Shown piece after piece: positions 4,559-27,455 of a stretch of DNA of 64,000 nt (the stretch's first letter is position 1; the number at the start of each line of letters is the position of its first letter). The stretch covers positions 65,784,001 to 65,848,000 of the forward strand of contig CM052816.1 in assembly GCA_028534125.1 (NCBI GenBank). The letters are read 5' to 3'. This stretch comes from Lama glama (Eukaryota). The translations under genes and the position numbers were made by a program. Below the pieces are notes generated by a model. That model had not been told where the DNA came from, ran no database searches, and was given only the letters and a program-made list of their open reading frames with translations.

Positions 4559-5058
4559 NNNNNNNNNNNNNNNNNNNNNNNNNNNNNNNNNNNNNNNNNN
4601 NNNNNNNNNNNNNNNNNNNNNNNNNNNNNNNNNNNNNNNNNNNNNNNNNNNNNNNNNNNNNNNNNNNNNNNNNNNNNNNNNNNNNNNNNNNNNNNNNNNN
4701 NNNNNNNNNNNNNNNNNNNNNNNNNNNNNNNNNNNNNNNNNNNNNNNNNNNNNNNNNNNNNNNNNNNNNNNNNNNNNNNNNNNNNNNNNNNNNNNNNNNN
4801 NNNNNNNNNNNNNNNNNNNNNNNNNNNNNNNNNNNNNNNNNNNNNNNNNNNNNNNNNNNNNNNNNNNNNNNNNNNNNNNNNNNNNNNNNNNNNNNNNNNN
4901 NNNNNNNNNNNNNNNNNNNNNNNNNNNNNNNNNNNNNNNNNNNNNNNNNNNNNNNNNNNNNNNNNNNNNNNNNNNNNNNNNNNNNNNNNNNNNNNNNNNN
5001 NNNNNNNNNNNNNNNNNNNNNNNNNNNNNNNNNNNNNNNNNNNNNNNNNNNNNNNNNN
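4559..5058. other. Assembly gap (500 N) with identical 94-bp flanks
   Basis: Run of N; 4465-4558 is identical to 5059-5152. Confidence 0.97.
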
Positions 5059-6553: not shown

Positions 6554-6629
6554 ATTTACTGTCCTTTTTTTTCCCTTTTCTTTTGCAGGTAAGTTTGGAA
6601 ATTATTTTGCTAATGGAAGAGAGGTATGG
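6554..6629 (+). other. PDE4D: Candidate recursive splice site (3'ss directly followed by 5'ss) with a 35-nt RS-exon
   Basis: tttAc branch-like motif (A6558), AG-free pyrimidine tract 6562-6584, CAG|GTAAGT at 6588|6589, alternative donor GAG|GTATGG at 6623|6624. Same strand as PDE4D. Confidence 0.7.
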
Positions 6630-7972
6630 TGTCACTTTTTTGCTGAATTTAATTTTGATTGCTTTTAACATTGGGTTTGAAAGATGATGCGTCTCACCTT
6701 GCATTTTGTTGTGGTTGTGGTTGTTTTGTTGTTGCAAATATTTGTAAGTTAACATTGTGGGTTTAAGTTATTCAATTCATGAGTTTTAAGTATGTGAGTC
6801 CATAAAGTGATCTATGCATTTTGTATTTTGGTTTGTATTTAAATAATTTCTATGCCAGATACAAGGAAAGAGATTGTATTGGGAGGATGAGGGAAATACA
6901 AGAGTAGATAATATGAATGCAGTGGGAGTCTGTAAGGCTGAGAAGGGCAGCAACCTTCAGCTCTGGGCGCGTAATCTACAATGACCATGGCTGTGTGTCA
7001 GAAAAATAAGATGTCTTTTCATGAGCAGAGGTAATCAGCCAGAGACTGCTTTTTAAACCCTTGGTTTCATGTTTTCTTCTATTATTTTACAACATATCTG
7101 ACCAGGGTATTGCTGATGCGTATCTTTGAAAAAGGTATGGCTGTAACCATTTTGAACTAGAAGTCAGATTTTAAGTTAGAAAGCAATAAAATACATTCAC
7201 TTCCTGAAAGCCATCTGGAAAAAAGCAATAATGAACTATAATTAGCTATTTCAGATAAGAAGAAGGATATTTCAATAAATCTTCTAGAGAAGATAAACTA
7301 TCAGAAAGGCTTAGGAAGATGTAGGATTTGTACTGAGGAAAGAAAGTAGCCTCTTAAGTGTCCCCCGCACAGGACTGTGGCTTTATTATTGTGCACTGTG
7401 TTTTCATTCACATAAGAAAGAAGTGATTGTGTGGATCTGAATCAGGCAGAAAACTGAAGTAAACTCTATGCTAATTATAAATGGTGTGTTTACCTTATTC
7501 TAGAAAGAGTGTATGGGTTTGTAAAAGTATTAAATATATAAAAATAAAGAGAGACAGGGGCACTAAATCTACTCCTAGTCTAAGTTCTTCCTCATCAGTA
7601 GGAGATGATGTAGCTCAGGAGGCAAGAGAGTTCTTGGGCCCCTGGTCCTGATGGGTAAAGAAATTTGATCTCATTCTATTCTCTTTGATATAATCATAAC
7701 AATAACAAATTCATCAGGGTAGAGTTAACTGTTATCACTCTGAGTAAATTTACAACAATCAAGGAGTTCAGATGTTTTCACTGAGAAAATACAAATCTGG
7801 TATTTGAACCACAAAGTTCGTTGGCCTGCAACTCTCTTCATTTTAACTAGTATTCTAGTGTTTGATGGATAGGAGGGGAATTAAAGGATATTGGCAAATG
7901 TCATGACATGTTTGGAAAATACATGTATTTTTTTTTCCTCTTCTAATCTAAGTGTCAGAGAGATTCTTTAAC

Positions 7973-27366: not shown

Positions 27367-27455
27367 ATGGCATTTGTCTGGGATCCTCGGGGAGCCACAG
27401 TGCCAGGACCCTCAGCACGAGTCAAATCAAGATTGCGTTTCTCAAAGTCCTACAG
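27367..27455 (+). CDS. PDE4D: cAMP-specific phosphodiesterase 4D, isoform PDE4D8-specific first coding exon (partial CDS; splices in phase 2 to downstream common exons outside the window)
   Basis: ATG at 27367 gives MAFVWDPRGATVPGPSARVKSRLRFSKSY plus AG, then the donor CAG|GTATCG at 27455|27456. This closely matches the human PDE4D8 N-terminus as I recall it (MAFVWDPLGATVPGPSTRAKSRLRFSKSYS). The split AG codon fits the Ser at the junction with the common long-form exon (S-FDVDNG). Confidence 0.93.

Follow-up and report, generated by a model that had tools for sequence, protein, structure and literature searches.

A probable Lama glama counterpart of the published recursive splice site RS3 of PDE4D and its candidate 35-nt RS-exon

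In an intron of PDE4D in the genome of Lama glama, a strong acceptor directly abuts a consensus donor, and a second donor follows 35 nt later. Does this arrangement represent a recursive splice site, is it the counterpart of a site already reported in human or a new one, and does it carry a built-in poison exon, as a first-pass annotation of the locus proposed? The underlying idea, a cryptic RS-exon that introduces a premature stop, is reportedly the model of Sibley et al. from 2015. The analyzed window is a stretch of 64,000 nt (contig CM052816.1, here C1; positions C1:65,784,001-65,848,000, plus strand), and the genomic context was covered by 200 kb upstream and by pieces of 600 and 400 bases downstream.

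Anatomy of the site and chance expectation of its motif

The flagged site occupies positions 6554-6629 of the window, and its elements are collected in the table. By inspection of the sequence, the boundary 6588|6589 falls within CAG|GTAAGT, which spans 6586-6594, with AG at 6587-6588 and G at 6589. The candidate branch point TTTAC fits the pattern yUnAy, A6558 is the closest A on the 5' side of the polypyrimidine tract, and the tract is enclosed in an AG-free zone of 33 nt (6554-6586). The hallmark of a recursive site, a strong 3' splice site abutting YAG|GTAAGT, is found here as a 93% pyrimidine tract followed by CAG|GTAAGT. The motif positions of the first-pass annotation, including A6558, the tract, CAG|GTAAGT and GAG|GTATGG 35 nt further on, were all reproduced in the sequence. 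It had also placed the site in non-repeat DNA; the 501 bases round the site are single-copy, matching the 2.35-Gb genome nowhere but at their own position. A run of exactly 500 N, either an assembly gap or withheld sequence, occupies window positions 4559-5058, 1.5 kb upstream of the site. The share of the words of the stretch in RNA-labelled sequencing runs was about 0.18-0.3 (24 runs overall).

Features of the PDE4D region of Lama glama and distances between recursive sites (window positions unless given with C1; RS3 here denotes the flagged site, the probable RS3 ortholog, and RS2 the likely RS2 ortholog)
Feature	Position or distance	Strand	Remark
PDE4D3-type first exon, end	C1:65,615,551	+	MMHVNNFPFRRHSWI(C), then TG|GTGAGT; phase 2
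RS2-like site	C1:65,725,976	+	second sense-strand AGGTAAGT; tract CTTTTTGTGTTTTGTTTTCC; 58.0 kb upstream of window start
Candidate branch point TTTAC	6554..6558	+	A6558, -31 from 3' splice site (G of AG = -1)
Polypyrimidine tract	6559..6586	+	28 nt, 26 of 28 pyrimidines (93%)
Recursive splice site AG|GTAAGT	6587..6594	+	3' splice site ends at 6588, regenerated donor from 6589
Candidate RS-exon, 35 nt	6589..6623	+	predicted; after a phase-2 exon TG-G TAA = Trp, stop
Nearest downstream donor GAG|GTATGG	6624..6629	+	9-mer 6621-6629, boundary 6623|6624
Further candidate donors TTT|GTAAGT (+155), TAA|GTATGT (+201), TAT|GTGAGT (+205)	6744..6799	+	alternative RS-exon ends
PDE4D8-type first exon, coding part	27367..27455	+	ATG at 27367; encodes MAFVWDPRGATVPGPSARVKSRLRFSKSY; ends TAC AG|gtatcg; phase 2
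First common exon, start	C1:65,928,521	+	tttacag|T TTT GAT GTG GAC AAT GGC (FDVDNG)
Upstream (PDE4D3) exon end to RS2	110.4 kb		mouse 107.7 kb; human 117.9 kb
Upstream (PDE4D3) exon end to RS3	175.0 kb		mouse 172.1 kb; human 203.9 kb
RS2 to RS3	64.6 kb		mouse 64.4 kb; human 86.0 kb
RS3 to common acceptor	137.9 kb		human 166.4 kb

Within the window, the 16-mer YYYYYYNCAGGTAAGT occurs once versus 0.01 expected, and 1 of 100 shuffles reached one match; the bare AGGTAAGT is not enriched there (3 found, 2.64 expected). Genome-wide, the 16-mer was counted 563 times versus 763 times for its reversed control and is thus no commoner than the control, so that the motif alone proves nothing and the context must decide. 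In the 264 kb examined, the 20 nt preceding AGGTRAG reach a pyrimidine content of 75% or more at 4 of 36 sense occurrences versus 0 of 26 antisense ones.

Position of the site within PDE4D and its orthology to RS3

The common exons of PDE4D were located by a Pfam PDE4_UCR scan together with a short degenerate pattern for FDVDNG, which matched at C1:65,928,522. The sequence at this match contains tttacag|T, and the start of the first common exon is therefore placed at that T, which completes TG-T (Cys) after the PDE4D3 exon and AG-T (Ser) after the PDE4D8 exon. The Pfam match at C1:65,954,686 was rejected as the first common exon since it represents the second one (VLASLRTVRNNF...). The proposal that long-form first exons end in phase 2 was checked against the common acceptor and the first exons of PDE4D3 and PDE4D8, and it held in each. 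The exon within the window is presumably that of PDE4D8, judging by the N-terminus of the human isoform; its ATG lies 20,778 nt downstream of the flagged site, in accordance with the annotated location on the PDE4D sense strand about 21 kb upstream of the PDE4D8 exon. The intron that follows the PDE4D3 exon measures 312,969 nt, versus 370,360 nt in human. On the sense strand, the flagged site lies deep within this very long intron and divides it into 175,038 and 137,932 nt, with the donor 175.0 kb and the acceptor 137.9 kb away.

Three recursive sites have been published for human PDE4D, at hg19 positions 58,981,769, 58,764,261 and 58,678,237, in introns that share the acceptor at 58,511,794 and follow exon ends 59,064,072 and 58,882,154 (Zhang et al., 2018, PMC6110456). 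The third of them, RS3 (chr5:58,678,237, minus strand), is also included in the sheet "230 RS sites by Sibley et al." of that study; the first-pass annotation had likewise named PDE4D among the human long genes reported to use recursive splicing. In the tabulated data of Zhang et al. (PMC6110456), junction reads are recorded for human RS3 once 4sU labelling reaches 120 min (80 total and 35 unique at 120 min). The site also has a saw-tooth fold change of 4.2-6.2 (p <= 6e-4), lariats whose 5' end is RS2 and whose branch points lie about 20 and about 33 nt upstream of RS3, and a PhastCons score of 0.99975. In addition, these authors dropped the sites that overlap annotated splice sites and kept RS3. 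The mouse Pde4d sites, for which Moon and Zhao (2022, PMC8797253) tabulate read counts and 20-nt tracts, are listed at mm10 chr13:109,333,510, 109,550,007 and 109,614,417, with upstream exon ends at 109,117,080 and 109,442,353. Based on the spacing and on the isoform probe-set order D7, D4, D5, D3, D8, D9 (PMC5342582), we infer that the upstream exons ending at 58,882,154 in human and at 109,442,353 in mouse correspond to the PDE4D3 exon. Supplement S4A of PMC8797253 lists two different upstream exons for the three Pde4d sites, yet the regenerated donor is ACGGTAAGT in every case. The upstream exon end in this mouse table is ACG for all three sites versus ATG in the PDE4D3-type exon of Lama glama, a mismatch that may reflect either an error made in copying the table or a difference between the species. 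The Duff 2015 preprint does not mention PDE4D.

The spacing of the flagged site relative to the PDE4D3 exon, an RS2-like site and the first common exon matches that of RS3 (see table), which identifies it, very probably, as the Lama glama ortholog of this known site. Conservation at the orthologous position is seen here as synteny only, namely as four spacing measures plus tract similarity: of 12 tract pairs compared, the last 20 nt of the flagged tract and the mouse RS3 tract scored highest, with 15 of 20 positions identical. These 20-nt tracts are low in complexity. The RS2-like site is likely the ortholog of RS2 (mouse chr13:109,550,007, human chr5:58,764,261), judging from its position and from its tract, which includes GTGTTTTGTTTT, an unusual element also present in the mouse RS2 tract. 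Of the 9-mers close to this RS2-like site, CCG|GTAAGA at +144 alone resembles a donor. The identity of the flagged site with RS2 itself was ruled out because 252 kb separate the published human RS2 from the acceptor. Thus, the question whether the site is the ortholog of a reported human site or a new one, which the first-pass annotation had left undecided, is answered by the published coordinates in favor of RS3.

Three mouse tract-plus-motif strings, searched in the genome with up to 3 mismatches, gave no match on contig C1 for any of the three; the tracts are too divergent for such a search, and spacing was used instead. In metagenome contigs, a 19-mer fitting both the mouse and the Lama tracts found 93 loci, none of which aligned past the seed (longest 41 nt), as expected of chance matches. 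An ortholog of RS1, expected at about 65.50-65.52 Mb of C1 (about 100-109 kb upstream of the PDE4D3 exon), was not located in the PDE4D region of C1 with the mouse tract pattern and a pattern of eight pyrimidines followed by AGGTAAGT. A third sense-strand AGGTAAGT at C1:65,690,604, with an 80% pyrimidine tract TCCTGTTGCTATATTTTTCT, is situated 75 kb past the PDE4D3 exon, and its spacing fits none of the three published PDE4D sites.

Proposed splicing route, the candidate RS-exon and rival explanations

With the anatomy, phase, intron size and synteny of the flagged site observed in the genome, we infer its use in Lama glama, and any role of the 35-nt exon, along the following lines. From transcripts initiated at or upstream of the PDE4D3 first exon, an intron of about 313 kb or larger would be removed stepwise. 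The upstream exon or RS2 would be spliced to the AG at 6588, with removal of 175 kb (65 kb from RS2), and the resulting junction would regenerate the strong donor ATG|GTAAGT; in the second step, this donor would be joined to the first common exon, 137.9 kb further on, and the mRNA would keep no sign of the site. Exon definition of the site is probably aided by the donor at +35 or by those at +155 to +205. If one of these donors were used instead of the regenerated one, TG-G-TAA would be retained in the mRNA, with a stop 17 codons into the PDE4D3 frame. PDE4D8 would never meet the site because it starts downstream. The core reading, a recursive site used only by isoforms that start upstream, is supported by way of a probable ortholog that has published experimental evidence. 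A 2026 preprint describes a single PDE4D site that is reached from five distinct upstream exons, which fits the earlier suggestion that several upstream isoforms pass through the site.

According to the RS-exon model, the downstream donor defines an exon and competes with the regenerated donor, and inclusion of the exon leads to a premature stop (Blazquez et al., 2018, PMC6224609). Any sequence starting at 6589 after the phase-2 PDE4D3 exon translates as TG-G TAA. The stop is immediate since GTAAGT follows any phase-2 exon, whichever downstream donor is used; the arithmetic behind the immediate TAA of the first-pass annotation, NNG-TAA after phase-2 ends of the PDE4D3 and PDE4D8 type, is therefore correct. 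In purely arithmetical terms, this stop would precede the last exon junction by more than 50 nt, with many exons following downstream. The donor GAG|GTATGG is consensus-like, and the near-identical 9-mer AAGGTATGG has a MaxEnt score of 9.26 in the mouse table. The poison function that had been built on this exon fared less well than the site. The recursive site stands through its orthology to the published RS3, whereas the "built-in poison RS-exon" has no data in its support: in nuclear RNA of the mouse cortex, RS3 (chr13:109,614,417) is listed with 33 up-junction reads and 0 down-junction reads within 350 nt (PMC8797253). The literature that we searched contains no report of PDE4D RS-exon inclusion, donor competition or an NMD-sensitive rise; the Sibley and Duff 2015 supplements may list a human RS-exon. 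The 35-nt poison exon is a reasonable hypothesis, which the only relevant data, those tabulated for mouse, do not support.

The most serious rival explanation, to which we give somewhat less than an even chance, accepts the recursive site and holds that its working RS-exon uses the donor at +155, +201 or +205, or none at all, so that no meaningful poison isoform is formed. The mouse read counts agree with it, as does the mouse table entry, which lists a 150-nt RS-exon with the weak donor TTGGTTTGG (score -1.65; PMC8797253). Further points in its favor are the three additional donors within 205 nt of the site that match the consensus at six of nine positions, the length of the candidate exon, which at 35 nt is shorter than any mouse RS-exon tabulated with down-junction reads (42-202 nt; PMC8797253), and the fact that a junction-supported RS-exon is present in only 50% of human saw-tooth RS sites. 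Against it, the search for downstream donors, which returned candidates at +35, +155, +201 and +205, places GAG|GTATGG as both the nearest donor and the best by consensus class, and an nAG|GTRnG donor of that class is expected 25-100 nt past a random position in the region with p of about 0.028 (about 0.03). Moreover, the regenerated ATG|GTAAGT would outcompete all downstream donors, and absent reads thus leave room for a role of these donors in exon definition. At the opposite end, the +35 donor could act as a promoter-selective switch, by which transcripts from some upstream promoters would include the 35-nt exon and be silenced by its immediate stop or re-initiate downstream; we consider this unlikely. 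If true, re-initiation would yield an N-terminally shortened enzyme, and PDE4D8 together with the first exons further downstream would escape.

Two other readings appear very improbable to us. One regards the locus as an acceptor-like tract that adjoins GTAAGT by chance and is functionless in Lama glama. The genome-wide excess of the reversed control over the 16-mer and the chance-level frequency of AGGTAAGT in the window are compatible with it; against it stand the four spacing measures, which match a site with published junction reads in human and mouse and saw-tooth and lariat signals in human, as well as the partner RS2 at the predicted distance and the high human PhastCons score. The other reading takes the site as the start of a regular cassette exon, alternative or untranslated, in stable PDE4D transcripts, and indeed some annotated cassette exons double as RS-exons (PMC6224609). 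Such an exon would bring an immediate stop in the sole available frame, no down-junction reads are listed for the mouse ortholog (PMC8797253), and RS3 was retained in the tabulated human set from which overlaps with annotated splice sites had been excluded (PMC6110456); all three points argue against a cassette exon.

Comparison with the published PDE4D recursive sites

The flagged site is a conserved recursive splice site of the textbook type that is already published for human and mouse; the only addition made here is a third mammal that retains the site together with its partner RS2 and the distance between them. Inclusion of a cryptic RS-exon at PDE4D RS3, and a regulation of the long PDE4D isoforms by it, would be of modest interest: the long forms of PDE4D are drug targets, and the published mouse data are without inclusion.

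The layout of the Lama glama site is that of the cryptic RS-exon model (PMC6224609), with an acceptor abutting a donor, a second donor downstream and a stop on inclusion. Human RS3 resides in the same gene and in the same intron, between the PDE4D3-type exon and the first common exon, and likewise comes after RS2. This intron is divided into 175 and 138 kb in Lama glama versus 204 and 166 kb at the published human site, and AGGTAAGT is positioned behind a strong acceptor in both. The candidate branch A about 31 nt upstream of the Lama glama 3' splice site compares with mapped branches about 20 and about 33 nt upstream of human RS3 (PMC6110456); the proposed branch point A6558 would thus agree with the distal human branch. 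The tabulated mouse RS3 has near-identical spacing (172.1 versus 175.0 kb from the upstream exon, and 64.4 versus 64.6 kb from RS2), the same AGGTAAGT and the similar tract described above. However, the RS-exon listed for mouse is 150 nt long and ends at a weak donor (PMC8797253), whereas the Lama glama site is followed by a consensus-like donor at +35.
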